Positions 6,654 through 24,598 of a stretch of DNA of 64,000 bases are shown here, piece by piece (the stretch's first letter is position 1; each line of letters opens with the position of its first letter). Location: NCBI GenBank assembly GCA_016197005.1, contig JACPWO010000001.1, positions 5,106 through 69,105 of the forward strand, in the 5' to 3' direction. The position numbers were made by a program, and so were the translations under genes. Source of the stretch: Candidatus Anderseniibacteriota bacterium (lineage in GTDB: Bacteria; Patescibacteriota; Andersenbacteria; UBA10190). The notes under the pieces are model-generated. The model ran no database searches. It was not told where the DNA came from and saw only the letters and a list, made by a program, of their open reading frames with translations.

Positions 6654-6677
6654 ATACAAAGCAGTAGTGTAGTGGGC

Positions 6678-8624
6678 ATGTTCAAGGACTGGAGGACCTA
6701 TAAGATAGATATCCTTTTTGTTTTACTTATTTTTTTCGTTGCCCTTATTCCACGAATCGTCGATCTAGGTATATTTTTAACTGCTGACGAAAAAAACTGG
6801 ATTGGCCGATCCTATGAGTTTATTAAAGCGTTTAAAGATGTTCGGCTGAACGATATGTTGCAGACTACCCATCCTGGGGTACCGGCGTTGTGGCTTATGG
6901 GAATAGCCGTTACGGCAAAAATGTTTTTATCCCATATTCCGTTTTCGTCTGACACACTTCCTCAATTTATCTGGGCCACTCAGTTTCCCATCGCTTTCGT
7001 CAATGCACTCGCGGTGCCTACTATATACATTTTCCTTCGCAAACTAACTTCTGGTTACAAGATCCCTATTATTGCATCTCTCTTTATTGCTTTGGACCCA
7101 TTTATTATCGGCTATTCGCGGGTCGCTCACGTCGATGCACTTGTCATGAGCTTCCTATCTTTAGCAGCCCTCGCGACCATTATCTATGTTAGTAAGAACT
7201 TTGATCGACGCTGGCTGCTTGTTTCTGCCGTATTGTCCGGTTTGGCAATACTGACCAAGGCCCCAGCGATATATATAATTCCATTTTTCTGGTTAGCGGT
7301 GCTTTGGAAAAATGGCCTAAAACACTTTTCTTGGGATGGTCTCTCCGGGCGAGTACGGGATTTTGTCCTCTGGTCTCTTTTGATTGCAGTCATGATCGCA
7401 GTTATCTGGCCGGTATTTATTACGGTCGTAAACCCAAAGGGAAATGCAAATATATTACGACGTGACCTAAGTGTGGCTATAGCGACACCACATCACATGT
7501 CTGAAAACTATTCAGTGAAGGCTTGGCATTACCCAGCCGCTTTGCTAGTACGAACGAACCCCGTAACACTTGTGTTTGCTCTAGTGGCGGTCCTTTGGGT
7601 TGTGGTTGCAAGCATTCGCCGGCAGTCATCTCCGACCACCTATTGGTTACTCATAGCGTATGTTTTCTTCTTCGTTCTAATGATGACGCTTGGGGCCAAG
7701 AAGGGGGATCGGTATATACTGCCGGTCTTCCCGGCTATTGATGTATTAGCAGCAATTGGTCTCGTGTCCTTGGTAAAATTTACTAAATCCAGCTCTTTTA
7801 CAAAGTTGCTTCCAGCAGCTGCTGTTTTATATCTCGCCTTTACGGTATATACATATCACCCATACGCATTGGCGTATGCGAACCCCTTCTTTCCAGATAA
7901 TTTGAGCCAGGAGTTGGGGTGGGGTGAGGGACTGGAACAAGTAGCAAACTGGTTCAACGAGAACGATCCCAAAGCTCACGTCGCCTCTTGGTATGACCAA
8001 GAGCTTGGTGCATATACGACTGCGCGCGTTGTTTCGATTGGAGCGCACGAGCAACCACATATTAAATACGTCGTGCTATACAAAAACATGTTTGGTAGAG
8101 CGGCTGATCATCCAGCAAATGATTATATTGACGAATATTACAAAAAACGAGAGCCAGTATTTGTCGCGCACGTTCTTGGGAAGGAGTTTGCCTGGGTTTA
8201 TAAGAAGCAGGTGTATGAAACAATAACCGGCGAACTTTTACCGGGACAAAAAGTTAAACAAGTACTTGCTGCTGATACCGAGCCAATCGTTGGTCTTGAT
8301 ATCCAGATGGCTACATACAACGGGCGGGCAACAAGCGGGCAGGTAATAATAACATTAGAAGATTCCACCGAGAATCTGATCCATACCTGGACTATTCCCG
8401 TCTCCGACATTGCAGATGACAGCTGGCGCCGTCTCTTACTGCCTACACGTGCAGAAAAAGGAGAAATGCACGTTAGTATAACTGCCGAAGGGACTACTCG
8501 AGGGAATGCTCCGACTATTCGACGTACAACCGAGGGAATAGTAGCGGTTCGACTTTTATACGGTATACCCAGCAACCCCTACCACTCCGAGCAAACCAAG
8601 TTACTCCCTTCAAAGCTTAAATAG
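6678..8624 (+). CDS. GT-C-fold glycosyltransferase (GT39/83-like DE motif) with conserved C-terminal domain family
   Basis: The ORF-track start at 6612 would read through the terminator hairpin, so the start is moved to ATG 6678 (MFKDWRTY…). It has the loop-1 motif TADEKNW, many TM helices, and a C-terminal GWGEGLEQ / YVVLYKNMFGRAADHP block shared with four paralogs. Confidence 0.6.
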   Translation: MFKDWRTYKIDILFVLLIFFVALIPRIVDLGIFLTADEKNWIGRSYEFIKAFKDVRLNDMLQTTHPGVPALWLMGIAVTAKMFLSHIPFSSDTLPQFIWATQFPIAFVNALAVPTIYIFLRKLTSGYKIPIIASLFIALDPFIIGYSRVAHVDALVMSFLSLAALATIIYVSKNFDRRWLLVSAVLSGLAILTKAPAIYIIPFFWLAVLWKNGLKHFSWDGLSGRVRDFVLWSLLIAVMIAVIWPVFITVVNPKGNANILRRDLSVAIATPHHMSENYSVKAWHYPAALLVRTNPVTLVFALVAVLWVVVASIRRQSSPTTYWLLIAYVFFFVLMMTLGAKKGDRYILPVFPAIDVLAAIGLVSLVKFTKSSSFTKLLPAAAVLYLAFTVYTYHPYALAYANPFFPDNLSQELGWGEGLEQVANWFNENDPKAHVASWYDQELGAYTTARVVSIGAHEQPHIKYVVLYKNMFGRAADHPANDYIDEYYKKREPVFVAHVLGKEFAWVYKKQVYETITGELLPGQKVKQVLAADTEPIVGLDIQMATYNGRATSGQVIITLEDSTENLIHTWTIPVSDIADDSWRRLLLPTRAEKGEMHVSITAEGTTRGNAPTIRRTTEGIVAVRLLYGIPSNPYHSEQTKLLPSKLK

Positions 8625-8731: not shown

Positions 8732-9973
8732 ATGTTAACTATGACAAATATCTTACAGCTACGCCTGCGCGGTATCCGGTACATCTTACCGGTTGCTTTG
8801 ATCGTCGTGGGTACAGCATTATTCACCTCAAACCTTGAATCAGCTACCGGCGCTGGTAGTAACGGTATTACCGTCATCAACCCTCGCCTTTCCGCTGGTT
8901 ACAGTAACCTGCCTCGCACTCTGCGAGATCAGCCAGTTATTGAGGTATTCGTTAATTCACCAATTCATAACGCTCCAGCTGGAACATACGACAAGAACGC
9001 CGTTCCTTTCAGTTATAGCGTGAACTTCTTAGTCTGTAACAACATCCTCTTCAATGCTCGAGTTTTGTCTCGCTTTGATGCAATGGGTGGACACCACAGC
9101 AACTATGAAGGTACTGCACAGAGTAACTGGATTAAGCTTACTGATGATTCTCATGGCGAGAACCACTGTGGCGGATCTCTGTACTGTGTTGCTAGTCGAA
9201 CTGGTAGCCATACCCTTAACTTCTCAAGCCTGAAAGCTGGAGAAACAAAAGCTACCTTGCAGGTAGTTGGTAAGTGGCTCCGAAAACAACAGCCAAGCGA
9301 TTCCTTTGATCGGAATGATGCTTCCTTCACGGACAACAAAGCTACTGCTGTGAACATTTGGCTTAACTTTGGTGGATCAACTCCAACTCCTACCCCAACA
9401 CCTACGTCTACGCCAACAACTACTCCAACTCCTACCCCAACACCTACACCGACTCCAGCGCCAGGTGAACCGGGAATCCGAGTAACTAAGACTGATAACC
9501 GAGATATCACTCGTCCAGGACATACCTTGACGTATGAAATCAAAGTAGAAAATGTCGGTGAAGTTGATATGGGAGACGTTGAAATCAAAGATACCGTTCC
9601 TTCTTACCTTAAGATCACATCTGTCAGTGACAGTGGTCACATCTCTGGTCAGGTTGTTACCTGGAATGGAATTGATCTTGACACTGATGAATCTAAAACC
9701 TTCTACGTTAATGTAACGGTAAAGGATTCTGCCCCAAACGGCACCAACCTTCTTAACACCGTAGAAGCTTGTTCAGATGATCAGGACGTCTGCGATGAAG
9801 ATGACGATACAACTATTGTGGAAAAACCTCCGGTTGTAAAAGGAGTAACCAAAACAGTTGTTATCAAAGAAGTCCCAGTAACCGCTAAAACCGGTGGTGC
9901 AGCCTCTCTTGCTTTAACCAGCCTTGCTGGTGGAGCCAGTGGCCTCATTTACCTCAAGCGTCGTTACTTCTAA
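8732..9973 (+). CDS. secreted/cell-surface protein: signal peptide, unknown N-domain, Thr/Pro-rich linker, DUF11 repeat domain, sortase-like C-terminal signal
   Basis: The signal-like N-terminus is LRGIRYILPVALIVVGTALF. A 28 aa TP-rich linker is followed by a DUF11-type block (TLTYEIKVENVGEVDMGDVEIKDTVPSY…VTWNGIDL…). The C-terminus has a motif (VPVTAKTG), a hydrophobic helix and a KRRYF tail. The gene has its own promoter and terminator. The alternative start is ATG 8741. Confidence 0.7.
   Translation: MLTMTNILQLRLRGIRYILPVALIVVGTALFTSNLESATGAGSNGITVINPRLSAGYSNLPRTLRDQPVIEVFVNSPIHNAPAGTYDKNAVPFSYSVNFLVCNNILFNARVLSRFDAMGGHHSNYEGTAQSNWIKLTDDSHGENHCGGSLYCVASRTGSHTLNFSSLKAGETKATLQVVGKWLRKQQPSDSFDRNDASFTDNKATAVNIWLNFGGSTPTPTPTPTSTPTTTPTPTPTPTPTPAPGEPGIRVTKTDNRDITRPGHTLTYEIKVENVGEVDMGDVEIKDTVPSYLKITSVSDSGHISGQVVTWNGIDLDTDESKTFYVNVTVKDSAPNGTNLLNTVEACSDDQDVCDEDDDTTIVEKPPVVKGVTKTVVIKEVPVTAKTGGAASLALTSLAGGASGLIYLKRRYF
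9380..9464 (+). repeat. low-complexity ACN-CCN tandem repeat encoding (TP)n, with an internal 42 bp direct repeat
   Basis: The sequence ccaactcctaccccaacacctac occurs at 9384 and again at 9426. It encodes STPTPTPTPTSTPTTTPTPTPTPTPTPAP. Confidence 0.6.
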
Positions 9974-10000
9974 CAAATACTCTTAAATCAAACAAAACAG

Positions 10001-10034
10001 CCAACCCCGCTCTAACGCGGGGTTGGTTTTATTA
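10001..10034. terminator. bidirectional rho-independent terminator between convergent genes
   Basis: CCAACCCCGC, TCTAAC loop, GCGGGGTTGG, then TTTTATTAT on the + strand. On the - strand the same hairpin is followed by CTGTTTTGTTTG. The hairpin overlaps the last four codons and the stop of the - strand gene 10012..12816. Confidence 0.6.
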
Positions 10035-12816
10035 TAGGGAGGAAAAAAAGTAAACTTCCTATCAGTACTCCCGATAGGGTTAATATGCGCGCCCACATTA
10101 CTGCGGGTGATTTATATTTAAAGGAAATGATATGAGTACCAGTGGGTATCTCCGCAGTTTTAAAGATGGAATTACCAACAAGTTGCACTGATTCTTTTCC
10201 ATCAATATAGGTATGCCACTGAGGGGTAGTAGAATCCGTAAGTACCACATAGGCAGGTTGATCTGACGTCACCTCAATGTCCACCTGCGTGGGTTCGTAC
10301 CGTTTAATAACCGCGTTAGCGTTAACAGGTTGGGAAGAAGTTAAGATCTTTTCAGGTGGCTTCGGACCAGATAAATACACAACATTCCTTGGATCGAAGT
10401 CGGTGGCACTCATGGCGTGTCGTGTTTCATCAGCGGCAGATTTCCAGATACCAGAGGGAACGACAAACGCATGAGGATAGGCATTAGGATTGCTATATAA
10501 ACGAGCTGTTTTTGTACCAATGGGCACTTCTGCGACCACTTTATATCCGGCTTCTACCATCGTGTCGCTGTTAACTGATGATAAAAGTTGGCCCAAGTGA
10601 GTAATCCCAGCCATGTCCAAGAGTTTACGGCTACGTTCAATGGCGTGGATATTATCACCGTCAAGCGGCTCCTGATCATTCGCAAAAAAGAATTCAATAA
10701 ATTGTCGATACGGACGTATGGAAAGAGCACCAATCCAGCGGGCGCTGGAAGCGCCGGCAATGACATTAGTATGCCGCTCCAGAAGAGCAGCTTCAACGTC
10801 ATATGATGTTATAAGGTCTGGCTCAATGAGAGTTTGGACGGTTTTTTGGGAACGTTCCCACTCAGCTTCGGTTGGGTCAGAAGTGCGAACAAAATAGGCT
10901 TGATGTTCAACGTCAGGTTGTTCAATAAAAGGAACGGTAACATTGGAGTTAAAATCAGCGGATAGTGAAATCCAGGTCGTTGCTTCCGGTGAAATAATAC
11001 CTTCGTCAAAACAAATATGCTGTCGTGCACCCTGACCAACTCGGTGCAAGGATAAAGAAATTACTTGTTGGGGTGGCTGTCTTGGATCCCTGTACGCCCC
11101 TACATTTATCTCCCCTTCCTGACCGGCGAGGGCAGCTTCGAGTGGAAGATAGATGCAGTGAAAATCTTCAGTTGTTGGCGGGATCGGTTGGTAAACAGAG
11201 AATGTCGGCGAAATATGATCAGTATAACGAACAGCGGCAACATCTTCCGGTTTTTTTTGTAGGAGCAGCGGTCGGACATATAACCGGGGTGGCACCAGGT
11301 TTTGATCAGCAGCACGTACTGCTTCTTCAAGCGGAGAGACCGCAAAGGCGGTAGTGGCAGGTGTGGTTGGATTATAATTCCAGGCATAACTGAGCAATGT
11401 AACAACTGTCAGAATTGATAGTCCGTACATTTGCACTCGCCTTCCTCCTTTTCCGTGGACGACAAGTGCAATGACTAGGAAAATAATACTGAACGCAACC
11501 AAAAGAATATGTGGATCATTATGCTCCCATAGATATCGCAACTCGTGTTGTTCCACTCCTTCTTCCCATACCCTCATTAAGAAGGGACTTAAAAGAATAA
11601 GAGGAAAAGCAAGGGCGCTAATACCAAACCAGATTTTTTTTCTCCTACTTCCATGGAGAAATGCCTCGATGCCCGCGGTTGCTAACAGCGCGATGCCAAT
11701 GTCAAAGAAAAATACAAAGCGAGAGGCAATTGCAAACGAAGAGAAAATGAGCTTCTCAACTAAGTAGTGATAAAGTGGTGAGTACTTTCCTAAAGCTAAT
11801 AGAATTGAGAGTGCGACGAGAAGTCCACCCGCTGCATGTTCTGCTCTCCAGCGACGACGTTGGGTGAGCGCAGCGCCAGCTAATGCGAGTGGAATAATTC
11901 CGACGAATGCAGCTAGTTCCTGAAAGCCCTTTGCTCCCCAGTGGGTACTGTGATTTCCAAAGAAGTACGGGAGTATAAGTGTGACGGCGTGAACTGGTGG
12001 GTAGCTAAACTCCACTAACTCTTGTCGGGAGAGCGCCTCAGCTCGTTCGGTCTCGGGAATGAATTCCCAGAGAGGGAGTATGGCGAACGAAGATATACAA
12101 AGAGCTAGTAGTCCGGCTATAACGGTGTGTCCCATAACCTTACCAAAGTGCCGCCAGCTTGTTGCGTACTCAGCAAGGAAGCAGGCTCCAATAATGGCCG
12201 CGGCAATAAATGTGAGAAGAACAACTTGCGGCTGCGCTGACAATACAATTGCGGTTGCAATTGCTGCCAATGTCAGGTTGGAACGGAGAACGGGATGCTC
12301 AACGACACGGAGAGCGGCTAAGACTAGCCATGGCAACAGCATTGTCCCTGTATAAAAGTTAACGTGATTCAAATGCCCAATAGAAAATCCACTGAAGACA
12401 AAGACAATAGCTCCGACTGCGCTTGGGATTTCAGAAAAATGACGACGGCGCAGAAGAGCATAGAATCCGAGTAAACCGATCAAAAAGTAACTGGCAATCG
12501 AGATTTGGAGGAGCGTAAGTGGATGAAAACCGATCAGTCGTAGCAGAACATGAAGCGGGGTAAAGAAACCGAGCTGTCCCCACGCTAGGAGGGGATGTCC
12601 AAACCCAAATTCGTTGCTCCAAAGTGGGAGCTGCCAATTGTGTTGAAATTCCGCGTAGGCTTTTTCCAGTGGATAATAAATAATTTTAAGGTCGTCGAGA
12701 AAGAAGATATTACCAGCAAGAAATATGCGACCAAAAAAAATCGCCCACGTTAAAATAATAAAACTCAGCCCCACCCGATTTTGGTGAATGTACGTGAGTA
12801 ATCGGCTATTGTTCAT
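10012..12816 (-). CDS. YfhO-like GT-C-fold polytopic membrane protein with large C-terminal extracytoplasmic domain
   Basis: 934 aa. It has about 13 N-terminal TM helices with conserved His/Trp-rich loops, followed by a roughly 400 aa soluble C-terminal region and a final TM helix. The YfhO assignment is by architecture only. Confidence 0.5.
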   Translation of the reverse strand: MNNSRLLTYIHQNRVGLSFIILTWAIFFGRIFLAGNIFFLDDLKIIYYPLEKAYAEFQHNWQLPLWSNEFGFGHPLLAWGQLGFFTPLHVLLRLIGFHPLTLLQISIASYFLIGLLGFYALLRRRHFSEIPSAVGAIVFVFSGFSIGHLNHVNFYTGTMLLPWLVLAALRVVEHPVLRSNLTLAAIATAIVLSAQPQVVLLTFIAAAIIGACFLAEYATSWRHFGKVMGHTVIAGLLALCISSFAILPLWEFIPETERAEALSRQELVEFSYPPVHAVTLILPYFFGNHSTHWGAKGFQELAAFVGIIPLALAGAALTQRRRWRAEHAAGGLLVALSILLALGKYSPLYHYLVEKLIFSSFAIASRFVFFFDIGIALLATAGIEAFLHGSRRKKIWFGISALAFPLILLSPFLMRVWEEGVEQHELRYLWEHNDPHILLVAFSIIFLVIALVVHGKGGRRVQMYGLSILTVVTLLSYAWNYNPTTPATTAFAVSPLEEAVRAADQNLVPPRLYVRPLLLQKKPEDVAAVRYTDHISPTFSVYQPIPPTTEDFHCIYLPLEAALAGQEGEINVGAYRDPRQPPQQVISLSLHRVGQGARQHICFDEGIISPEATTWISLSADFNSNVTVPFIEQPDVEHQAYFVRTSDPTEAEWERSQKTVQTLIEPDLITSYDVEAALLERHTNVIAGASSARWIGALSIRPYRQFIEFFFANDQEPLDGDNIHAIERSRKLLDMAGITHLGQLLSSVNSDTMVEAGYKVVAEVPIGTKTARLYSNPNAYPHAFVVPSGIWKSAADETRHAMSATDFDPRNVVYLSGPKPPEKILTSSQPVNANAVIKRYEPTQVDIEVTSDQPAYVVLTDSTTPQWHTYIDGKESVQLVGNSIFKTAEIPTGTHIISFKYKSPAVMWARILTLSGVLIGSLLFFLPIIKPTPR

Positions 12817-15004
12817 ATCCGGGGTAGAATGCGGTCTTACCAGTCATGTCGATAATAATATCATTGGCAGCTACGGAATCAGGTATAGAATCATACCGCT
12901 CTATTGATACTGGGGAAGTGCTTCCTAAGAGACGGAATAAATAAGCTGAGAGTGAAGTAGTTTGATCGGGATGAACACCAATGAGCAAAATACGAGCGTG
13001 CGGATCTACCGGTTGTTGTTGTTGCTTGTATTGGCGAGCTGCTTCTTGGATGTATTCGGCTTGCTCTCGGTAAAAGCGAGTCCGTTCAGGCACCCGTGCT
13101 TGCCATGTACCGTAGATAACTAAGACAAGTAACAGTGTCCCGCCAACCCGTGTCCGATATAGAGCCGGTACCCGCAGTACGAGAAAGCCGACAAGTAACG
13201 CTAATCCGAATACGGATAAGTATATCCAGCGAAAACGCCAATCGTTAGCTAGGAAAAGAACAGGACCGAGAAATGCGAGCCACCATACTCCAGCGAGCAA
13301 GATTCCATGAAAGACTTTTTCATCTTTTCGTAGCCACATAAGCAAGCCGGCGTATAGTAGTAATAAAACGATGCCTGGATAGTAGGGAGATTGAAGCCGA
13401 GATTGATTAAATAGAGTACTAAGAGGTTTTTCCACTACCGAAATTCCTGGAACGTTAATTGGCCACAACCAGTTTTCAGCCGTCCAGTCAGCATACGTAA
13501 GCAGATTTTGTCCGAGCATTGAGGGTGTAAGTCTAGTTGTGTATGTATCATTTGTTGCGGTAACTGGAGGAAGGGTGGGATCACTAAACACAGCTGCGCG
13601 CAAGAACAAAAGCAGACACGCTACTACAACATATGGAGCAGCTGCTACCGCCGCTGACTTTTTAAGTGTCTTCAGTGTTAGAACATCAATTGCAAACGCA
13701 ATGACAGGTAAGATAAGAACATGTTCCTTAGAGAGAAACGCAAGTGCGTACAATACAAGCGAGGCACATAAGTAACGTCCTTGTGCTTTAGAGCGCCACC
13801 AAATGAAACAAAGAAGAGATGCTATGGCAAATAAGCCAGCCAAGATGTCATGGTTTGAGCTCCACCAATACGCAGTACCAATTTTTGAACTATGTGCAAT
13901 CCAAGTAGCCGCCGTCGCTGCAGCAGCAATAGGTGAGCGAAGAATAATAAGAGCCAGTACGAATAGTCCGACGGCAGTGATAGCAATAAGGAGAATATTC
14001 AAAAAGTAAGCAGCTTCTGCTTTCGGCCCGACGCTATGCCAGATAATTGATGAAAACAAGCCGGCACTTACTGGTCGCCAAAAATGAAGATCAAATTGAG
14101 AATATTCGTCAGCTTCCAGATAATCATGCGCCAAAAAAAGTTTCCAGCTATCCGCGCCTTTATACTGTTCGGCCCGCGCAAGCAAAGCGAGATCATCATG
14201 GAAATAGAATAAATGCGTTGCTGGCCAGTAAATACATAGTGTTGCCACGATGAGGCCACCCGCCCACAACGCGAATGCTCGGTGGGAGAGTGTGGTGAGT
14301 CCCTCCAGAGCATCAGGTATCGGCTCGGGAAAACCGTATAATTTGAGAGCAAGGCCCCCTATAACAATAAGCGCCAATGCAGCAAGTAAGTGATGGTGTT
14401 GGGTATCTGTTAACCAACGAACAAGGAGAATAGCAATAGGTGGTCTCTCGTACAAAACAAATCCGATATTACCTTGCTTTTCCTCTCGTTGAGAAAATGT
14501 TTTTCCTTCTAAGTATTTAGATGCATCACTTTCATACCGTATATGAATCGCGTCGGCTTTTGAGACGCTAAGCGTCTCAAGTGTAAAGTCATACGTTTTA
14601 CCACTGGTGCCAGTGATCGGTTCAAAAAGGAAAAAAAGAGTTGGAACATAAGAATCCAGTTGCTGCTGAGCATCGACGTATTGAATATGTGTCTGATCAT
14701 AAAACTGGGCAGCAGGCCCAGATAAACTACGAATAGTCTCATTACTTTCTACTTCCTTTACGGTGAAAATGACTTCAGTTTCTGAAGCAGGAATTTCCGT
14801 ACTTGCTAACCAAAATCTAAAACCATGCAAAGAGTTGGTGGGAGCAACAATACGTTGGGTAAGTGGATTCCCGGCGAATACTTGATGGATGTGTTTGTCA
14901 TCGGGGGTTTGCACTAGGCTAACAGTTCGAAATGGTCGTTTGCCTCCACTAAAGATGAGCCCGACCAATAGGATCGCAAGGAGTATTACTATTTTTTTAT
15001 TCAT
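12806..15004 (-). CDS. GT-C-fold membrane glycosyltransferase with N-terminal anchored extracytoplasmic domain
   Basis: The start is taken at the internal ATG (MNKKIVILLAILLVG…), which is preceded by AAGGA and removes the overlap with the upstream gene. The rest is a roughly 200 aa soluble domain followed by a multi-TM region. Confidence 0.55.
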   Translation of the reverse strand: MNKKIVILLAILLVGLIFSGGKRPFRTVSLVQTPDDKHIHQVFAGNPLTQRIVAPTNSLHGFRFWLASTEIPASETEVIFTVKEVESNETIRSLSGPAAQFYDQTHIQYVDAQQQLDSYVPTLFFLFEPITGTSGKTYDFTLETLSVSKADAIHIRYESDASKYLEGKTFSQREEKQGNIGFVLYERPPIAILLVRWLTDTQHHHLLAALALIVIGGLALKLYGFPEPIPDALEGLTTLSHRAFALWAGGLIVATLCIYWPATHLFYFHDDLALLARAEQYKGADSWKLFLAHDYLEADEYSQFDLHFWRPVSAGLFSSIIWHSVGPKAEAAYFLNILLIAITAVGLFVLALIILRSPIAAAATAATWIAHSSKIGTAYWWSSNHDILAGLFAIASLLCFIWWRSKAQGRYLCASLVLYALAFLSKEHVLILPVIAFAIDVLTLKTLKKSAAVAAAPYVVVACLLLFLRAAVFSDPTLPPVTATNDTYTTRLTPSMLGQNLLTYADWTAENWLWPINVPGISVVEKPLSTLFNQSRLQSPYYPGIVLLLLYAGLLMWLRKDEKVFHGILLAGVWWLAFLGPVLFLANDWRFRWIYLSVFGLALLVGFLVLRVPALYRTRVGGTLLLVLVIYGTWQARVPERTRFYREQAEYIQEAARQYKQQQQPVDPHARILLIGVHPDQTTSLSAYLFRLLGSTSPVSIERYDSIPDSVAANDIIIDMTGKTAFYPGYEQ

Positions 15005-15015
15005 ATCCTTGATAG

Positions 15016-15534
15016 TCAGTTGCGACATTGCGTCTCCGTACCACCACACACGCGATAGAGTGCTTTATCATCCTCATGAAGAATTCGATAATCAAATTTT
15101 CGTGTTTCGTCTTCATCAAAAGCAATCACATCATTTTGAGGAAGTTCCAAGCTTGCTTCGAAGAAATATCCCTTAGCTTCTCCTTTTCGTATGTCTGTAA
15201 CACAGTAACGATAGTACTGTGTATCTGACTCGCGAATATCGTGTGGGGAAACATCAATATATTGGCCCTTTACGATTGGTGATTGTGGTCCAAAAAACCA
15301 GCTGTCAACCGTGCGAGAATCGGTGCAATGAGGCTTTGATTTCGGGGGGGTGGGGTAATACTCGCGGTCGTTGTGATATACCTCTACTGCTTGTTTCAAA
15401 TTGGTTATGTCTTCTACCCGTAAGTGATCGCGTGCCTGGGTACGGGCGTAGAGAAAAGCTGGTATAAGAATAATTAAGGCAATCCCGGCGGCAATCCCGA
15501 TTGCCAATAGTTCCCATTTCAGGTCATGATTCAT
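15016..15534 (-). CDS. pseudopilin-like (GspG/type IV pilin-like N-terminal helix) small secreted protein, paralog of 36125..36631
   Basis: Start placed at Met80 of the long ORF (MNHDLKWELLAIGIAAGIALIIL), by analogy with the paralog. The ARTQARDHLRVEDITNLKQAVEVYHNDREYYPTP block resembles the GspG 'AR-D-L-AL-Y-DNG-YPT' region. SWFFGxQSP, IPHDVRES, YCxTDIR and YRVCGGT blocks are shared with 36125. The exact start is uncertain. Confidence 0.45.
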   Translation of the reverse strand: MNHDLKWELLAIGIAAGIALIILIPAFLYARTQARDHLRVEDITNLKQAVEVYHNDREYYPTPPKSKPHCTDSRTVDSWFFGPQSPIVKGQYIDVSPHDIRESDTQYYRYCVTDIRKGEAKGYFFEASLELPQNDVIAFDEDETRKFDYRILHEDDKALYRVCGGTETQCRN

Positions 15535-15556
15535 ACTATGTATATCCGTGTGAATT

Positions 15557-17971
15557 TTGGTACCAGCTCCAATGGTGCGATGGTATAACATCCAGTATAC
15601 CGGAGGCAAGCTGCTTACTTCTCGGTGGCTATGGGTGTCTGAGTTAGTTCTCGTATTAGGTGTTCTTTGGTTAAGTAGTCCCGTTGATATAATAGAAGAA
15701 GTTCGCTCACCCGGAGACATAAATTCTCGATTTTTGCTGGGAGATACCCGGACAGTTGGGCAAACATTCACAGCTATTCCTAATTTAAGGGTTCTTGAAT
15801 TACCAGTAGAGGTCGAGCCGGGCGCCCAGGGACCAATAATTCTCCATATTCGTCGTGATTATTTTGGCAGGGATCTTCGCAGTAGTGTTATCTTTCGTCC
15901 TGGGTCAGGAACTCAAACATTTGTTTTTGAACCTATCAACGTAGCGCGAGGGGAGACATTAATGTGGGTTTTAGAAAATCCCCATGATCCCGATCGCTCC
16001 ATTTCAGTGTTTCGAGAAATTGACGGCAGTCTTTATTTAGGCGGGGAGGCATATACCAAGGGAAAGGAATTGGCCGGAGATTTTCAATTTAAGATATTCG
16101 GAAGTCGTCCTTTAGTTACTGCGATTCCCTCTATGTTGGCCGGAGCTACAAATGAGTTCATCTTCCTTGATGATGGAGAGCGTCAAGCACTTATTGTTGG
16201 TTTAATCGTAGCGTTAATTGCTTGGCTTTTCGCCCCCAGGATTGTTCAACTTCTGCGGTGGTTTCTATACCGTCCGCGCCTAACACTTGTTTTATTAATG
16301 GTAGTTACGTTTGCGCTCCATATAACGACAGCGAAAACAATACCACTTAATAACGATGAAGGAGCCTATCTACAGGATGCTTTGCAAGCGCAAGAAGGGT
16401 TTGTCCCCGTTAAAGATTTCTTAACAAAGGGTCCGGTGTATGTGTATGTACTCTCAATCTGGACTAATCTTGTTCCATTTGCTGTGCCTTTTTTGCGCCT
16501 CTTAAGCACAGGGGCGTGGATTGCGGGAGTATTGCTTGTTTACCGTCTTTCTCGCGAGCTTGGATTATCGGTGGGGATTGCACTTACGGCGGCGGCCCTC
16601 CTTGCTCTTTCTCCAGCGGCAGTCTTGCTCAGTACGCCACTATTATTGCAATCAATCAGTGCAGTATTGGTTTTAGGCGGCCTTCTTCTTACCATTATGG
16701 GAGCAAAACGAGAAAATGTATGGTTCGTTGTTGTCTCGGCAATTTGTATGGTGGCTGCATATTTAACCCGCGCTAGTAGTATCCCTGCAGCAGTAGTTGG
16801 GCTCGGAATAATCCTATGGTTTTCCGAGCGCAATCGTTTCCGCTTAGCTGCCACGTACACGATAGTCGGATTACTTGTTACCGGATCCTTATTTACTGCT
16901 GCCACCTTGTACATGGGTCTTGAGAAAGCGACGGTCGCGTTCAATATTGAAGCACTCGCTGTATCGCAAGCGCGCGAAATAATAGAGACAACACCGGAAG
17001 AACCAATTGTTCGTTGGTCAATCGAAAGTGCGATGGTGTTGTGGAGTATGTCTCCCTGGTTTATCGCTGGTGTTCTCGCCCTTCCTTGGTTTTTGTTTAA
17101 GTACGTCTCGCGTTGGCAGACAATTCTTCTTCTTGCCCTTTGGCTGCTCCTAGCGTCTCATGTTTGGTTTCACCTTAATGACATGTCGTATTTCGTGGGT
17201 GCCCTTCATAAAGTTGCCCGAGTATTAGTCATTTTCTCGGTTATATTGCCGCTGTTTATAGCAGCGGTGCGTTGGTTACTTGATAAACCAGCACCCGCGT
17301 TGTCGCAGACACAAGCTCGGGTCCTTATTCTTATGCTGGCATGGATATTAATGCTGGGAATGATTTATCGCGTATGGAGCGACTTTCGACCAAATTACCT
17401 ATTAGAATTTTTGCCACCACTAGCACTGATAACTGCTCAATGGGGAAGGAATATCTGGGCAGCTATTACTACTCGTCCTCACCGGAATGCCACGCGCTTT
17501 GCGCTGGGGGCAGTAGTGCTTATTGCGGTTACTGGTGGGTTGGCTGGTTGGCGATTGGGACTACGGTTTCCGCCGAGTGGAACAATGGATCTTGGAGCAC
17601 TTAGCGACATTGTAAATGAAGTAAAAACGTATGTGCCGCCACGCGAGCCTCTCTTTACCGCACAATCAGCCGTCACCGCTTTAGCCCGACGGCCAATGAT
17701 ATTTCAGTATAGTCATTCTGGTTGGTATTTATATGAACGACAGGGACTGGTACCAACGGAACTTTTACAGTTATTTTTCCAAAGTCCTGAATCTATTACT
17801 TCGTATTTAGACAAAACCGTTCAATTCATCTTAGTTGATCGACGAACTCAGCAGGTGTACTTCGATACGTATGAAGAGCGGCAGCGAATTCTAGCTGAAG
17901 ATTTTGAGAGTATCGTTACGGTAAAAAACGGTGATGACACATTTGAACTTTATCGACGAAAGATCAACTAG
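15557..17971 (+). CDS. GT-C-fold membrane glycosyltransferase with N-terminal anchored extracytoplasmic domain
   Basis: 804 aa starting at TTG (or at ATG 15572). It has an N-terminal TM helix, a roughly 180 aa soluble domain (…TRTVGQTFTAIPNLRVLELP…) and more than 12 TM helices. The exact start is uncertain. Confidence 0.55.
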   Translation: MVPAPMVRWYNIQYTGGKLLTSRWLWVSELVLVLGVLWLSSPVDIIEEVRSPGDINSRFLLGDTRTVGQTFTAIPNLRVLELPVEVEPGAQGPIILHIRRDYFGRDLRSSVIFRPGSGTQTFVFEPINVARGETLMWVLENPHDPDRSISVFREIDGSLYLGGEAYTKGKELAGDFQFKIFGSRPLVTAIPSMLAGATNEFIFLDDGERQALIVGLIVALIAWLFAPRIVQLLRWFLYRPRLTLVLLMVVTFALHITTAKTIPLNNDEGAYLQDALQAQEGFVPVKDFLTKGPVYVYVLSIWTNLVPFAVPFLRLLSTGAWIAGVLLVYRLSRELGLSVGIALTAAALLALSPAAVLLSTPLLLQSISAVLVLGGLLLTIMGAKRENVWFVVVSAICMVAAYLTRASSIPAAVVGLGIILWFSERNRFRLAATYTIVGLLVTGSLFTAATLYMGLEKATVAFNIEALAVSQAREIIETTPEEPIVRWSIESAMVLWSMSPWFIAGVLALPWFLFKYVSRWQTILLLALWLLLASHVWFHLNDMSYFVGALHKVARVLVIFSVILPLFIAAVRWLLDKPAPALSQTQARVLILMLAWILMLGMIYRVWSDFRPNYLLEFLPPLALITAQWGRNIWAAITTRPHRNATRFALGAVVLIAVTGGLAGWRLGLRFPPSGTMDLGALSDIVNEVKTYVPPREPLFTAQSAVTALARRPMIFQYSHSGWYLYERQGLVPTELLQLFFQSPESITSYLDKTVQFILVDRRTQQVYFDTYEERQRILAEDFESIVTVKNGDDTFELYRRKIN

Positions 17972-19549: not shown

Positions 19550-20266
19550 ATGTATGAGCGTATTAAGGCAGGCTGGGCAGCCTCCTCGCAAGAATTTGCG
19601 GGGAGAAATAGTTTTTGGGATAGGAGTGCATTGGTTATGTTACTTCGTCGCGTAGTTGATTCTAAGCTCAAGAAGTACGCCTCAGGTGACCTTCTGGACG
19701 CTGGTGCTGGCACGCTAGCCTATCGTGGTATGGTCAAAAAATATACTTCGTCATATACCAGTGTTGATTTTAAGGCAACTCACCCTGAACTGGATCGAGT
19801 AGCAGATATACAAGCGTTGCCGTTTGAGAGTGCATCATTTGATACCGTCCTGTGTGTGGAAGTACTCGAGCATGTGCCATATCCAGCCAAAGCTCTGGCT
19901 GAGTTGTATCGTGTGCTGCGGCCAGGTGGTTATATAGTTATTACAGTTCCGCATCTTGGGTATTTACATAACGAACCTCATGACTACTATCGATTCACCA
20001 ACTATGGCTTAAACGTTCTACTTAAAGACGCCGGATTTGAAATAATTTCAATAGAGCCTAACGGTGGGTTTATCTCTTTCATTCAACATATTCCGGCAAC
20101 TTTTTTAGTCGGCATGACCCATGGTATTCCTATTATTCAAGGACTAGTCCAAGAGATTAATCGACTGTGCAGCTACCTTACAATTTGGTTAGATGATCGA
20201 ATTGATAAACGTAAATTATTTGCCGTGCACTTTGTAGCCGTAGCGAAAAAATCTGGCCATGCTTAG
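19550..20266 (+). CDS. class I SAM-dependent methyltransferase
   Basis: Motif I is LDAGAGTL, and the post-I region reads VLCVEVLEHVPYP…LRPGGYIVITVP. Confidence 0.7.
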   Translation: MYERIKAGWAASSQEFAGRNSFWDRSALVMLLRRVVDSKLKKYASGDLLDAGAGTLAYRGMVKKYTSSYTSVDFKATHPELDRVADIQALPFESASFDTVLCVEVLEHVPYPAKALAELYRVLRPGGYIVITVPHLGYLHNEPHDYYRFTNYGLNVLLKDAGFEIISIEPNGGFISFIQHIPATFLVGMTHGIPIIQGLVQEINRLCSYLTIWLDDRIDKRKLFAVHFVAVAKKSGHA

Positions 20267-21131
20267 TATTCTTGTTCCTCTCTATAATGAAGAAGGTGCG
20301 ATCAAAAAGACACTCAGTGATCTCACGTCGACTGGCGATGAGTCAAGGATTGAGTATGAAATTATCGTTATTAATGATGGTTCGCGAGATAAAAGTGAAT
20401 CAGCCGTTCGATCCTTTCAGCGCGTTCGTCTTTTAACTCACCGACGGAATCAGGGGTATGGAGCAGCGCTTAAAACTGGACTGCGACACGCGAAGGGGGA
20501 ATGGATTGCAATTATTGATTCTGATGGTACATACCGCCCTGTCGATCTCTTTCGGTTATATCGCCTGGCTGAAGAGCGCGAGCTCGACATGATGGTTGGA
20601 GATAGGACTGGGTATCGTAATTCTATTCCTTGGTACCGACGTCCAGGGAAAGTAGTTATTTATTGGTTAGCCGCCTTTCTAGTTTGGCAAAAGGTGCCTG
20701 ATATTAATTCAGGATTGCGAGTATTTAAGAAATCTATGGCTGAGAAGTTTATGCATCTCTACCCACAAGGTTTTTCTTTCACGGTAACTATTACGTTAGC
20801 CGCGCTTACCAGTAATTACTTAGTAGAATGGGATCCTATTAGGTATGACAAACGGATTGGAAAATCGACGATGAATTTTTGGCGCGGACTCTTTCACACC
20901 TTCCCTAATTTTATAGCTTTAGTAATCCGGATCGTTACGTATTTTAAACCCCTTCGTTTTTTTATGATTCCCGCCCTTCTTTTCTTCTTGGTAGGTGTCG
21001 GTAACCTTGTGCGTACCCTTGTTTATGAAAGTAATATTAGTGATGCTTCACTTTTGCTACTTATGGTCGCAACGCAAGTGGGACTAATGGGTCTTATTGC
21101 TGACGTCGTCGTAAAAAGCCGAAGTCGTTGA
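20259..21131 (+). CDS. GT2 polyprenyl-phosphate sugar transferase (Dpm1/GtrB-like) with C-terminal TM helices
   Basis: LSILVPLYNEEGAI…IIVINDGSRD…DSDG, plus two C-terminal hydrophobic helices. It overlaps the previous gene by 8 nt (ATGCTTAG). Confidence 0.7.
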   Translation: MLSILVPLYNEEGAIKKTLSDLTSTGDESRIEYEIIVINDGSRDKSESAVRSFQRVRLLTHRRNQGYGAALKTGLRHAKGEWIAIIDSDGTYRPVDLFRLYRLAEERELDMMVGDRTGYRNSIPWYRRPGKVVIYWLAAFLVWQKVPDINSGLRVFKKSMAEKFMHLYPQGFSFTVTITLAALTSNYLVEWDPIRYDKRIGKSTMNFWRGLFHTFPNFIALVIRIVTYFKPLRFFMIPALLFFLVGVGNLVRTLVYESNISDASLLLLMVATQVGLMGLIADVVVKSRSR

Positions 21132-21133
21132 AT

Positions 21134-21994
21134 TTACTCCCACCCGAGCGGGTGTGCATGAATAAGTTCCTCACTATAAACAGGAACGTCCTGACAAGCG
21201 CGAATCTCGCGGAAGATACCAGTCGGTTCGTCGCTTAAAATATTCCCCCGAATTTGTACTGGTAGCGGATCGGTATTTCGTGCCTTAATAGTGATTCCGG
21301 TATCAATCCAGCGAGTAGGTGGGCGATCAAATGGAGTATGATCACACGTTGGTTGCCAGGTCTTGCCGCCATCGATTGATAGTTCAAGCCATCCTCGGGT
21401 TAGGAAGGCTTTACAGTCAGCGAGGATATGAAGAGGTGTGTTTAAATACGACTTACTTATAGAAAACTGCCAAGACGCCGTACATGCTCCATTACACTGC
21501 AAGTCTGGTGGGTAATCGTCATTTGGTATAAAACCGGTGAACTGATCTAATCCTGTCGTACGATCCCCAGAAATAGTCTCCGGACAGGTCAGATCAGTTA
21601 ATTCTCGGTCATGTACGCGATAGATGTACCAAAGCAGGTAACCTTTAACAGAAATTGTTTCTATTAGAGAAAGATGAGGTCCATGTCGTTCCACAAATGC
21701 AGAAACTAAAAATATATTGTCACAAGCTGGGTGCTGCTCTCGATAATCTTCAAGCGTATAAACACGATGTTGTCCGGCCATAGTCCATAGGCGCACATAG
21801 TCTCGGTAAGCGCTATTAAGAACAAGGCACGAATCCGGGGCAATTTGTCTAAAGCTGGCTCTAAGTATTCGAGCCGCTCCTTCGAAACAGTGGAAACGGA
21901 TCGCAACGTATAGGGTACAAGCGGCGCGATAACAAGTGTGGACAGGAGAAGATAAGTAGTAACGCTTTTTCGCGTCAGGCGTGTTAAAAACCAC
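21134..21994 (-). CDS. Cys-rich soluble domain ORF, probably the displaced C-terminal extracytoplasmic domain of the 21706..23061 GT-C gene (frameshift)
   Basis: 286 aa with no signal peptide or TM helix. The domain is globular and Cys-rich (…ETISVKGYLLWYIYRV…QCNGACTASW…). Its 288 nt overlap with the upstream gene suggests a +/-1 shift. Confidence 0.4.
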   Translation of the reverse strand: MVFNTPDAKKRYYLSSPVHTCYRAACTLYVAIRFHCFEGAARILRASFRQIAPDSCLVLNSAYRDYVRLWTMAGQHRVYTLEDYREQHPACDNIFLVSAFVERHGPHLSLIETISVKGYLLWYIYRVHDRELTDLTCPETISGDRTTGLDQFTGFIPNDDYPPDLQCNGACTASWQFSISKSYLNTPLHILADCKAFLTRGWLELSIDGGKTWQPTCDHTPFDRPPTRWIDTGITIKARNTDPLPVQIRGNILSDEPTGIFREIRACQDVPVYSEELIHAHPLGWE

Positions 21995-23061
21995 GCAGAC
22001 AGAAGAATTGGCAGAGGATAGATCAGGTCAAAATACCGTTCATTAGTGGCGACGCAGCGGTCGCTACCTAGCCATTTACTAACTGTTCCGCACCAGCCCG
22101 CATCCAAGGCAACCGATTGAGTTGCTGCCACAATGAATGGCATCGTTAAGGCAGCGGCGACTACAGACATTACTAAAAAACGCGCCAACTCGTTGTGACG
22201 ACGCAAACCCTGCCACATGGCCCAGAGAAGAGCAACAAGAAAAAGTATTGCAAGGGGGCCATGTAATGTGTGAAAGAGTGTCGCTACAATACCAACCATC
22301 CGAACAATAGCATCTTGAAATGATTCAGGGTTATCATTTCCTCCCGATCCGGCGTAGTTGCTAAAAAGATCCCAACCTTTTAGCCAGCTCGCATATAAAA
22401 ATGGGGCTAGGGCCATAAGTCCACCGGCGAGTGCACTTAATGTAGCGAGCAACTTCTCTTTCCAGGTCGTTTTTGTCAGTAAAATAGCGAGGCCATACGG
22501 GATTGTTTGAACAATAATGTACAGATGTCCATTTGCGGCTAGTCCTAAAAACAACCCGGATAATCCAGCCAGCCACCACCGATGGGATCGCATGTACTGA
22601 TAAAGAGCAAAGGCAGCCAAAACTATAAAGAGAACATTAGGACCCATTTCCCACGTGACGCGGGACCAATTCACCATCCATGACGAAAATAGCGCTATAA
22701 GAAGTCCGGTGATTGCTCCTCGAATACCGGCCAATTTTTTCAGCCATATAAAAAGAACAAGTGAAGCGGCAACACTTGCCAGTGCGGGAGTTAAGCGAGC
22801 AACGAACACACTGGGACCAAAGAGAGCAAAAAAGCCAGCAGTTATGTAATGAGCGACCGCGCCAAAGTGAGCGGTGACACCTCGAAAAATAAACACATGA
22901 TCACGCAGTATTCGTAGTGCCAAGTATCCGTTGTTACCCTCATCCGTCGCAAAATTATTGGAGTAGCTAAGATTGTAGAGCCGAAACGCGGTGGTAAGTG
23001 CTAAAAGCACAAATGCAACAATAAGAATGCGTAAGCGGTAAGAGAAGGTGCTTATAGGCAT
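21706..23061 (-). CDS. GT-C-fold (ArnT/PMT_2-like) membrane glycosyltransferase; 3' end possibly disrupted
   Basis: Loop-1 motif NNFATDEGNNGY and about 11 TM helices. The last roughly 60 codons overlap the next ORF in another frame. Confidence 0.6.
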   Translation of the reverse strand: MPISTFSYRLRILIVAFVLLALTTAFRLYNLSYSNNFATDEGNNGYLALRILRDHVFIFRGVTAHFGAVAHYITAGFFALFGPSVFVARLTPALASVAASLVLFIWLKKLAGIRGAITGLLIALFSSWMVNWSRVTWEMGPNVLFIVLAAFALYQYMRSHRWWLAGLSGLFLGLAANGHLYIIVQTIPYGLAILLTKTTWKEKLLATLSALAGGLMALAPFLYASWLKGWDLFSNYAGSGGNDNPESFQDAIVRMVGIVATLFHTLHGPLAILFLVALLWAMWQGLRRHNELARFLVMSVVAAALTMPFIVAATQSVALDAGWCGTVSKWLGSDRCVATNERYFDLIYPLPILLSAWFLTRLTRKSVTTYLLLSTLVIAPLVPYTLRSVSTVSKERLEYLEPALDKLPRIRALFLIALTETMCAYGLWPDNIVFIRLKIIESSTQLVTIYF

Positions 23062-23146: not shown

Positions 23147-24598
23147 ATGTTACGTTCGACGGAAGCGAAGACAGTTATTCTCGGAGCCGGCCCGGCCGGA
23201 ATGGCGGCGGCAATGGAACTTTGGAAGAAAAAACATCCCACGGTGATTATAGAGAAAAATACTCAAGTAGGTGGATTAGCTCGAACACTTGAATTTAAGG
23301 AAGGTAACGATGTATTTCGGACGGATATTGGCCCACATAGATTTTTCAGTAAAAATCAATATCTGTACGATTTTATTGGTGACTTGCTCGGTGAGGAGTG
23401 GATAACGGTTAACCGATTAACTCGGTTTTTTATTCGCGGCAGGCTCTACTCTTATCCAATTGAATGGAAGAATGCACTCAAAAACTTGGGCATAAGCAAG
23501 TCAATCCATCTTTTACTAGATTACATGTGGGAACGATTGAAAGATGTCGTCTACGGTAAGCGCGTGCCGCGTAATTTTGAAGAATATACGGTTCGTACAT
23601 TTGGACGGACTTTAGCGGAACTAAATATGCTTAACTACACAGAAAAGATTTGGGGGCTTCCTTGCTCTGAGCTCTCGGTAGATTGGGCAGATCGCATTAA
23701 GGGACTCTCATTTTGGGCAGCAATCAAAAACACTGTATTAAAACGTTCCCATGACTCGCCGAAAACACTCGTAGACCAATTCTACTACCCAGAATTTGGT
23801 GCTGGTATGGTCTATGAAAAGATCAGAGAACGGATTAGTTTGGATATTCCATTTCTCTTTTCATCTCAGCCCACGCACATCCGACATGACGCTAAGCGAG
23901 TTACCAGTGTGACTATTACTACTCCGTCCGGGGAAGTTGAGATTGCACCCGAGACCGTTGTTACTTCAATTCCTATTGTAGACTTACTACCGCTTTTACA
24001 ACCACTTCCGCCTCCGGAAATTCTCGCTCATGCCAAAGCCCTACGACATCGATCGCAAGTATATCTTTTTATTACAGTTAATAAGAAGCAAATTTTTCCT
24101 GACCAGTGGATTTATCTGCCAGATTCCCACGTTCCGTTTGGACGAGTCTCAGAAATGAAGAACTTCAGCTCAAAGATGGCGCCTAAAAATGCGACTTCAT
24201 TGTTTATCGAATTTTTTTGCTGGGAGGGTGACAGGGTATGGGAAGCGGACGCGGAGACCCTCCTTACTATGTGCTTACCATTTTTTGAAAAATGGAAATG
24301 GCTTACACGAGAAGATATACGAAAAAGTTATATTCATCGGCAATCCAAGGTGTACCCAGTGTATGACCTTGAATATAGAGGCCACATTGATGCTATTAAA
24401 AAATATGTAGATAGTTTTTCTAATCTTTATTCCATTGGCCGGCCCGGAAGATTTAAATACAACAACCAAGATCATTCGCTTGAGATGGGAATTATGGCTG
24501 CGACAGGAATAATCAATCACACAGCTGTGGATTTTGACGCAGTTATGTCAGGTAAAGAATATATGGAGTCAGGAGCAGCACCTCTTAAGAAAAAGTAA
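23147..24598 (+). CDS. FAD/NAD(P)-binding oxidoreductase, amine-oxidase/UDP-galactopyranose-mutase-like superfamily
   Basis: N-terminal Rossmann GAGPAGMAAA, the GGLART block, and IGPHRFF (compare the UGM 'YGPHIFH' motif). At 483 aa it is longer than a canonical Glf. Confidence 0.55.
   Translation: MLRSTEAKTVILGAGPAGMAAAMELWKKKHPTVIIEKNTQVGGLARTLEFKEGNDVFRTDIGPHRFFSKNQYLYDFIGDLLGEEWITVNRLTRFFIRGRLYSYPIEWKNALKNLGISKSIHLLLDYMWERLKDVVYGKRVPRNFEEYTVRTFGRTLAELNMLNYTEKIWGLPCSELSVDWADRIKGLSFWAAIKNTVLKRSHDSPKTLVDQFYYPEFGAGMVYEKIRERISLDIPFLFSSQPTHIRHDAKRVTSVTITTPSGEVEIAPETVVTSIPIVDLLPLLQPLPPPEILAHAKALRHRSQVYLFITVNKKQIFPDQWIYLPDSHVPFGRVSEMKNFSSKMAPKNATSLFIEFFCWEGDRVWEADAETLLTMCLPFFEKWKWLTREDIRKSYIHRQSKVYPVYDLEYRGHIDAIKKYVDSFSNLYSIGRPGRFKYNNQDHSLEMGIMAATGIINHTAVDFDAVMSGKEYMESGAAPLKKK

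Follow-up and report, generated by a model that had tools for sequence, protein, structure and literature searches.

Why should two small proteins that resemble pilins be encoded among genes for glycan synthesis? This question is raised by a 64,000-nt window (the whole stretch of DNA analyzed here) that forms part of a 575,969-bp contig from a metagenome-assembled genome of an ultrasmall bacterium, Candidatus Andersenbacteria (Patescibacteria, or candidate phyla radiation [CPR]). Two of its genes, both deposited as encoding hypothetical proteins (HYR90_03040 and HYR90_03130), specify the proteins referred to here as A and B. An earlier reading of the sequence (the original prediction) had taken them for paralogous pseudopilin-like proteins next to genes for GT-C-type glycosyltransferases (GTs) and had proposed that they might be glycosylation targets or accessory subunits of those enzymes. 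We found that A and B belong to a family of pilin ancestry that lacks the prepilin-peptidase site and that is persistently linked to a YfhO-type GT-C gene and often to a PMT-type gene as well.

15016..15534, minus strand: protein A, 172 aa; leaderless and pilin-like, with a transmembrane (TM)/alpha1 helix, a T2SSG-like head and four conserved Cys residues
36125..36631, minus strand: protein B, 168 aa; divergent, lineage-specific paralog and last gene of an operon, after a GT-C-like gene (g762) and a GT4 gene

Proteins A and B

Both open reading frames were confirmed at these coordinates on the minus strand. A 251-aa reading frame for A (GTG start at 15771) was rejected, being unsupported by either the family alignment or the NCBI call (HYR90_03040); the NCBI start of B (HYR90_03130) lies 4 codons later and gives 164 aa. 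The two proteins were 42% identical over 170 aa (E = 1e-48), which is far above chance and bears out their description as paralogs. The motifs quoted in the original prediction were present in both, namely, AR..RD.LR...L..A.E...ND..YPTP, SWFFG(P/K)QSP, (S/I)PHD(I/V)RES, YC(V/A)TDIR and YRVCGGT.T.C. Conserved Cys residues had also been claimed, and each protein was found to have exactly four. These were invariant in a 17-member family alignment (C70, C111, C163 and C170 in the numbering of A), in which 28 columns were invariant across the 17 sequences.

A represents the conserved ortholog type of the family, and B lacks the acidic loop (FDEDE.RKF) that is typical of it. No ortholog of B was present in the databases searched, and the orthologous g762-GT4 region of another Andersenbacteria genome (75% identity) contains no B-like gene; B is therefore a lineage-specific duplicate. 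At one related locus (L019), a family member lies inside a MurJ/GT9/GT2 cluster, which prompted the suspicion that a 189-aa gene beside MurJ in the window (60104..60673) was a third paralog. This candidate was rejected, as a search of all six frames of the window with the family hidden Markov model (HMM) found only A and B.

The family as a whole consisted of ~57 cluster representatives without a prepilin site, from Andersenbacteria-like Patescibacteria. Long forms like A and B (35 of 57) have four Cys residues and a 27- to 41-residue alpha-beta loop; short forms (22 of 57) are 129 to 145 aa long, with two Cys residues and no such loop. The features specific to the family and shared by its members were an acidic loop, F/Y-D-x-E-x-x-R-N/K-F/Y-x-Y-R, and a C-terminal C-G-G-T-x-x-C loop. 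In the alpha-beta loop ('YPTPP....CT'), the Ser-plus-Thr fraction was 0.18, compared to 0.12 in the rest of the head, a modest enrichment.

Homology to type IV pilins

Scans with curated models gave little indication of ancestry. Neither A nor B had a Pfam match at an E value of ≤10 (neither N_methyl nor T2SSG). The NCBIfam GspG model TIGR01710 had no match to B and a subthreshold match to residues 8 to 63 only of A (16.8 bits; cut-off, 88.85), and neither protein reached the cut-off of the curated GspG models (TIGR01710; T2SSG, PF08334). One of the 57 family members matched Pfam T2SSG (E = 0.004), and none scored above any Pfam family threshold. The leaderless family is thus covered by no Pfam or NCBIfam model and was previously undescribed.

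Profile methods gave a different result. A search of 1.84 billion representatives with the 17-member HMM detected 3,326 proteins at an E value of ≤1e-3, and the matches near 1e-10 were canonical pilins of the form 'KGFTLIELLVVIAIIG...AR.K.RD..R..DL..L..ALE.Y.N..G.YP...IP.DP...Y.Y...LE', which carry Pfam N_methyl and mostly T2SSG too. Alignment of the family profile with that of 11 canonical N_methyl-plus-T2SSG pilins (hhalign) gave a probability of 99.6% (E = 3.5e-24) over 126 columns and placed 'KWELLAI' of the family on 'LIELLVV' of the pilins. A profile search of the PDB returned the Geobacter pilin (1.8e-4) and Thermus PilA4 (0.007) in the same register. Glu8 of A and Glu12 of B were aligned with Glu5 of these two pilins and of canonical CPR pilins, and these in-register alignments indicated that the conserved Glu of the family is the homolog of pilin Glu5. 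It was conserved in ≥90% of the 57 sequences and stands, as is the hallmark of pilins, at the head of an ~20-residue hydrophobic alpha1-N segment; a Pro 17 residues beyond it is the homolog of pilin Pro22.

A structural likeness to pilins was also looked for and was found. AlphaFold2 models of A (pLDDT, 89.3; pTM, 0.79) and B (pLDDT, 82.1; pTM, 0.75) both had an ~55-residue N-terminal helix followed by a beta-sheet, which corresponds to the pilin fold of an ~50-residue N-terminal helix packed on an antiparallel beta-sheet head. A Foldseek search of these models against the PDB gave no significant match. Hits in the PDB included truncated heads without an N terminus (EpsG, a Shewanella pilin and TTHA1222), and hence the likeness is not owed to the long helix alone.

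Overall, the GspG/T2SSG-type homology proposed in the original prediction was upheld by the profile alignment and the modeled fold. By these comparisons, A and B descend from T2SSG/GspG-type type IV pilins, through a homology that is detectable only from profile to profile. The nearest canonical proteins, homologous over the ~126 columns, are the Patescibacteria pilins with N_methyl (PF07963) and T2SSG (PF08334) domains (e.g., P0055 to P0072), and solved relatives are Thermus PilA4 (6xxd), Vibrio cholerae EpsG (4lw9) and PulG (5wda). The family shares with canonical pilins the long alpha1 helix, the Glu5 and Pro22 equivalents, the helix-on-sheet head and the motifs AR..RD..R, LE.Y.N...YP, IP.D...Y.Y and LE. 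The four Cys residues, the acidic FDEDE.RKF loop and the C-terminal CGGT..C loop, in contrast, were confined to the family.

Loss of the prepilin-peptidase site

Type IV pilins are defined by a class III signal peptide, which consists of a short basic leader and a Gly at -1 with cleavage before Phe or Met at +1. The alignments confirmed the claim that a canonical site is absent, as neither A nor B has Gly(-1) or Phe(+1). The residues in register with these positions were His3/Asp4 in A, Lys7/Asp8 in B and Thr2/Arg3 in most members, with only ~2 residues ahead of the Phe1 position, and none of the 57 family members matched N_methyl. Members typically begin 'M-T-R-x-Q-x-E-Y' or have '(K/R)(K/R)E' just before the hydrophobic stretch. 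Unlike canonical pilins, the family therefore has neither a leader nor the cleavage/methylation motif (Gly followed by Phe-Thr-Leu-Ile), and charged residues, Arg or Lys, stand beside the Glu in place of the uncharged Phe-Thr-Leu-Ile. An uncharged N terminus of this kind is needed for pilins to leave the bilayer and to pack in the filament core. Since the defining class III signal is absent, A and B should, in functional terms, be called neither pilins nor pseudopilins.

Four metagenomic T2SSG-domain proteins (P0033, P0096, P0143 and P0163) likewise have a pilin head without N_methyl, indicating that the prepilin signal has been lost more than once. These differ from the family in being multidomain or tandem-repeat proteins and in reaching the Pfam T2SSG threshold; P0033 (755 aa) has six tandem pilin-head units with a short hydrophobic stretch before each.

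Linkage to YfhO-type genes in related genomes

The genes around A that are needed for a comparison between genomes are as follows.

6612..8624, plus strand: PMT670, 670-aa PMT/PMT_2 GT-C of the protein O-mannosyltransferase family (Pfam)
9999..10028, bidirectional: strong terminator-like hairpin (12-bp stem, 8 GC) at the 3' end of the YfhO934 gene
10012..12816, minus strand: YfhO934, 934-aa YfhO-family GT-C (Pfam YfhO, E = 1.1e-13, above the cut-off); third gene of the A operon
12806..15049, minus strand: g747, polytopic GT-C-like protein of 747 aa (740 aa from the ATG at 15028); PMT_2, E = 2.3e-5, just short of the Pfam cut-off
15557..17971, plus strand: g804, 804-aa GT-C-like protein with an N-terminal ectodomain, divergent from A; PMT_2, E = 5e-4

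Within the window, the presence of a GT-C neighbor says little in itself, because 11 to 16 of the ~50 genes of the window are GT-C-like. The arrangement was therefore compared across 16 nonredundant informative loci, comprising the two window sites and L001, L003, L005, L007, L008, L010, L012 and L017 to L023. These were obtained mainly by exact-protein look-ups, with pattern scans of metagenomes and of GTDB giving 3 and 7 loci; each related locus was read over 20 kb or less. All sampled members and loci came from one Patescibacteria clade, and the loci are not fully independent.

An ortholog of YfhO934 (26 to 52% identity) was located at most three genes away from the pilin-like gene in 13 of the 16 loci; in 11 loci, it was downstream and co-oriented. 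It followed the pilin-like gene directly in L003, L005, L012 and L023, came after g747 or its ortholog in window A and L001, after one or two epimerase genes in L007, L008 and L022, after a UbiA gene in L017 and after the gene for a 560-aa membrane protein in L020. In L018 the YfhO gene was an adjacent, convergent neighbor, and in L021 it was encoded on the opposite strand; three genes upstream in L019 lay a more distant YfhO-like gene, and only window B and L010 had no YfhO gene nearby. Linkage was retained by members that were only 25 to 32% identical to A (L017, L018, L020 and L023) and by the short subfamily (L018, L021 and L023). In most loci, the stop codon of the pilin-like gene overlapped the next start by 4 to 31 nt, and such overlaps marked the operon pairing in at least 8 loci. 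Orthologs of PMT670 (49 to 52% identity) were located beside the YfhO gene in L001, L003, L005, L008, L012 and L021, giving a recurrent triad in which the pilin-like and YfhO genes run in series toward a convergent PMT gene. Orthologs of g804 (31 to 38% identity) were divergent neighbors in L001, L007, L008, L010 and L022 and were two genes away in L003.

These results indicated that the placement of the family relative to GT-C genes is nonrandom. The association is significant because the same YfhO ortholog persists across genomes through insertions and inversions. The partner itself was not the one originally predicted: a link to GT-C genes was found, but the conserved partner is the YfhO-type gene (10012..12816) and not the GT-C genes with ectodomains, and the 747-aa type recurred after the pilin-like gene in one other locus only (L001; 36% identity).

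Pilus genes formed no part of this arrangement, in contrast to the setting of canonical pilins. No gene for pilus or secretion machinery (T2SSE, T2SSF, Peptidase_A24 or N_methyl; PilB/PilC/PilD) was detected within the 64-kb window, and none of the four domains was detected in ~14 related loci; over ~250 kb of loci, a family gene was never beside a pilus gene.

The gene that intervenes in L017 (10554..11453) encodes a UbiA-family prenyltransferase and recalls the polyprenyl-phosphate-pentose donor pathway of GT-C arabinosyltransferases (TfpW and Emb).

Genes flanking A and B

The genes adjoining B were as follows.

34614..36128, plus strand: g504, 504-aa PMT_2 GT-C, convergent with B; the 3' ends overlap by 4 nt
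36631..37758, minus strand: GT4, cytoplasmic GT of the GT-B fold (Pfam Glycos_transf_1, 8e-40), directly upstream of B
37755..40043, minus strand: g762, 762-aa GT-C-like protein with an N-terminal ectodomain (PMT_2, E = 2.6e-4); first gene of the B operon

The original prediction held that A and B are both co-oriented with and adjacent to GT-C genes with N-terminal ectodomains. TM maps showed that the ectodomains of the 747-, 762- and 804-aa proteins are real and consist of 170 to 190 aa between TM1 and TM2 (~190 aa in g747); g762 had 13 TM segments with a gap at residues 8 to 198. The claim of adjacency stood for A, which is co-oriented with g747 and overlaps it, but not for B. The immediate co-oriented neighbor of B is the GT4 gene, and the ectodomain-bearing g762 lies one gene further upstream; the GT-C gene that touches B (g504) is convergent, not co-oriented, and has no large N-terminal ectodomain. 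The g762, GT4 and B genes form an operon with overlapping stops and starts, including that of the GT4 stop with the B start.

In the A operon, the start of g747 overlapped the stop of A by 13 to 34 nt, a GGAGAC was present 5 nt ahead of the ATG at 15028 within the last codons of A, and YfhO934 overlapped g747 by 11 nt. The hairpin at 9999..10028 closes this A-g747-YfhO operon. The Pfam YfhO match of YfhO934 (51 bits) was to its N-terminal half. Sequence searches of the PDB with YfhO934, g747 and PMT670 detected no informative solved relative, and scans for promoter-like sequences gave background levels only. The divergent start codons of A and g804 (15534..15572) were 22 to 37 nt apart, and the equivalent distance was 28 to 84 nt in related loci. 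With so short a spacing, either each promoter must be embedded in the coding region of the opposite gene or transcription of the pair must be unusual.

Between the PMT670 and YfhO934 genes lies a gene for a 413-aa DUF11/DUF7507 surface-repeat protein with one TM segment (8732..9973, plus strand). It resembles a local insertion, the PMT670 and YfhO934 orthologs being directly convergent in L001, L003, L005, L008 and L012. An extramembrane module of ~170 to 190 aa between TM1 and TM2, without a Pfam match, recurred in 12806..15028(-), 15557..17971(+), 37755..40043(-), 2448..4712(-) and 58732..59949(-); the copies in g747 and g804 and a TM-less reading frame at 91..681(+) were detectably similar (phmmer, ~1e-7 to 1e-6).

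Setting of the window

Library scans of the reading frames together with TM maps indicated that the entire 64-kb window is one cell envelope glycan island. Its GT-C density is unusually high, with at least 11 genes having a PMT, PMT_2 or YfhO Pfam signal and ~5 further polytopic proteins having no Pfam match. Other transferase genes were nine of GT4/GT1, four of GT2 and two of GT9 type, and the island also carries a TagF-like gene, MurJ, a Wzx-like flippase, six S-adenosylmethionine (SAM) methyltransferases, two DegT aminotransferases, one epimerase and one FrhB-like protein. No GtrA-family match was detected among window reading frames of ≥140 aa. The island includes GT2 genes of polyprenyl-phosphate-sugar synthase type, and GT2 genes were located as follows.

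20259..21131: GT2 gene
51684..52481: GT2 gene
54311..55036: GT2 gene

Two further regions were of interest. A 286-aa reading frame without a Pfam match (21134..21994, minus strand) overlapped the 3' part of a PMT_2 gene (21706..23061, minus strand) by 289 nt on the same strand, which probably reflects a mis-set start or a frameshift. A trio of genes for a FAD/GLF-like oxidoreductase, a NAD epimerase and an FrhB-like protein (23147..26933) was 39 to 66% identical to genes in the island of another genome (L022, 1..1774) and is possibly a sugar-modifying unit.

Proposed role and alternatives

The homology and the synteny are solid and somewhat surprising, and what follows on function is inferred from them. 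A and B have probably been repurposed for cell surface glycosylation. In the reading that we tentatively favored, at a probability of roughly 35%, they are dedicated protein acceptors of the neighboring GT-C enzymes. The pilin-like protein would escape cleavage by prepilin peptidase, would not polymerize and would be retained in the cytoplasmic membrane as an anchor with its N terminus inside and its C terminus outside. The four invariant Cys residues and the pilin homology suggest an extracytoplasmic head, which would be stabilized on the outer face by two probable disulfides (C70-C111 and C163-C170). The GT-C enzymes would transfer sugars from polyprenyl-phosphate donors onto the Ser/Thr/Pro-rich alpha-beta loop, and the product would be a membrane-anchored surface glycoprotein. 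The family may thus derive, in immobilized form, from a pilin/glycosyltransferase pair like pilA-tfpO or pilA-tfpW, with B a lineage-specific duplicate that became joined to a second GT-C/GT4 operon. An acceptor was preferred as the most parsimonious outcome of descent from known pilin/glycosyltransferase pairs (e.g., pilA-tfpW), and also because a PMT-family enzyme is part of the conserved triad and because the alpha-beta loop is rich in Ser, Thr and Pro; the UbiA gene between the pilin-like and YfhO genes of L017 was also counted in its favor.

Several points weighed against an acceptor. The 22 short members of the 57 have no Ser/Thr-rich loop and still lie beside YfhO genes (L018, L021 and L023), and therefore the loop cannot explain the linkage throughout the family. 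Conservation specific to the family was strongest at D.E..RN/KF.YR and CGGT..C, which suggest a binding surface more than a sequon, and translational coupling is more typical of the subunits of a complex. The charges flanking the TM segment do not clearly set an N-in topology, with an Arg-rich alpha1-C following the TM as in canonical pilins. B has neither the acidic loop nor a YfhO neighbor, and the synteny was drawn from a single clade of incompletely independent loci. Furthermore, the only characterized YfhO acts on lipoteichoic acid and not on a protein (PMC5836110).

Some of these points would be accounted for if the protein were instead a noncatalytic accessory subunit, an explanation that is possible and nearly as good, although an acceptor was preferred to it. 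Such a subunit would dock the YfhO-type GT-C through its TM helix, with the conserved Glu at the membrane edge, and through its head and would stabilize the enzyme or present the real acceptor, for example, a teichoic acid-like polymer. The near 1:1 operon pairing, with its overlapping stops and starts, suits stoichiometric partners. Linkage is kept by the short subfamily without the loop, the invariant charged motifs common to long and short forms (FDEDE.RKF.YR and YRVCGG) suggest a binding surface, and the TagF-like, MurJ and Wzx genes of the window point to polymer acceptors. However, L018 and L021 have their YfhO gene on the opposite strand, B has neither a YfhO partner nor the acidic motif, and we know of no GT-C enzyme with a pilin-fold subunit.

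It is unlikely that the linkage is without functional meaning and that the family is a decaying or independent pilin relic (e.g., a membrane-tethered adhesin or lectin) in a vertically inherited glycan island. Adjacency to a GT-C gene would be expected by chance at the density of such genes in the window, all loci come from the one clade, and B is evidence that the gene is able to relocate to a different operon. Against this, the same YfhO ortholog accompanied the small protein in the 13 loci through local rearrangements and at 25 to 58% identity of the small protein, and the 28 invariant columns represent strong purifying conservation, which argues against decay.

Somewhat less likely again is a Sec signal peptide at the hydrophobic N terminus. 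Signal peptidase I would cleave it close to the conserved 'A-R', at about residue 30, and a soluble disulfide-bonded head, which might, for example, bind glycans, would be released into the wall space. Many members do have small or aliphatic residues at -3 and -1 before the conserved Arg (e.g., 'ARA' before 'A' or 'LYA' before 'R'), and truncated pilin heads are stable soluble domains (PDB 4d40, 4lw9 and 5g2f). The hydrophobic stretch of ~21 residues was modeled, however, as one continuous helix with alpha1-C, and position -3 is occupied by Arg or Phe in B ('VRQA' before 'R') and in several other members. Furthermore, signal peptidase I does not cut the homologous region in canonical pilins.

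Least likely of all is that A and B are still true pilins or pseudopilins, inserted "prematured" and polymerized by type IV pilus machinery uncleaved or after noncanonical cleavage: the Glu5 and Pro22 equivalents are kept, the start Met is only ~6 residues ahead of the Glu and Patescibacteria generally carry type IV pili (PMC11623550), but there is no Gly at -1, Arg or Lys directly precedes the Glu where pilins need an uncharged N terminus, none of the 57 members matches N_methyl and no family gene lies beside pilus genes in the ~250 kb of loci.

A more far-reaching version is also conceivable. The pilin fold may have been exapted as a nonpolymerizing protein anchor on which a YfhO/PMT GT-C module builds or decorates a surface glycopolymer, a version that we considered improbable as it stands. 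If true, lipid-auxotrophic Patescibacteria would have a functional analogue of lipoteichoic acid or lipoglycan that is anchored by a protein. Such an envelope glycoconjugate would be of a new class, and it would define the first protein partner or acceptor of a YfhO-family enzyme. To our knowledge, few acceptors or partners have been identified for YfhO- and PMT-like GT-C enzymes, and none in Patescibacteria, whose surface glycans probably mediate episymbiosis. A YfhO/PMT-like enzyme could be assayed with the small protein of this gene pair, which is expressible and a candidate substrate or partner.

Comparison with known systems

Two kinds of system resemble this locus in part. Pseudomonas aeruginosa pilA-tfpO (PilO) is a pilin gene paired with that for a dedicated glycosyltransferase. 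In P. aeruginosa pilA-tfpW, the pilin gene is followed by its own GT-C gene, TfpW being an arabinosyltransferase (Kus et al. 2008, as cited in PMC5836110, reference 42). The CsbB/YfhO system of Bacillus subtilis and GtlA/GtlB of Listeria carry out extracytoplasmic glycosylation of teichoic acids (PMC5836110).

With CsbB/YfhO and GtlA/GtlB, the island shares a protein above the Pfam YfhO threshold (10012..12816), GT2 genes and a TagF-like gene. Those systems have no pilin-like component, and their small partner is a GtrA-type flippase, GtcA (PMC5836110), for which the window reading frames gave no family match; the YfhO match here was also low, at 51 bits. A prior account linking YfhO-type enzymes with a pilin-like partner was not found in the literature searched.

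The likeness to pilA-tfpO and pilA-tfpW is one of gene arrangement only, in which a pilin-fold gene is followed on the same strand by a gene for a large polytopic membrane glycosyltransferase. This arrangement was found in A-g747-YfhO934, with YfhO following directly in four loci and within two to three genes in L001, L007, L008, L017, L020 and L022. The Ser/Thr/Pro-rich alpha-beta loop of the family adds to the resemblance, and the UbiA-type prenyl-phosphate enzyme of L017 may be compared with the polyprenyl-phosphate-arabinose donor pathway of TfpW. The pilins of the Pseudomonas pairs are cleaved and assembled into pili, whereas the leaderless family has no cleavage site; its partner is of the YfhO/PMT type, and its glycosylation is inferred. 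Set beside these pairs, the family would represent the reuse of the pilin fold and of Glu5 outside filaments, in association with extracytoplasmic GT-C glycosyltransferases.

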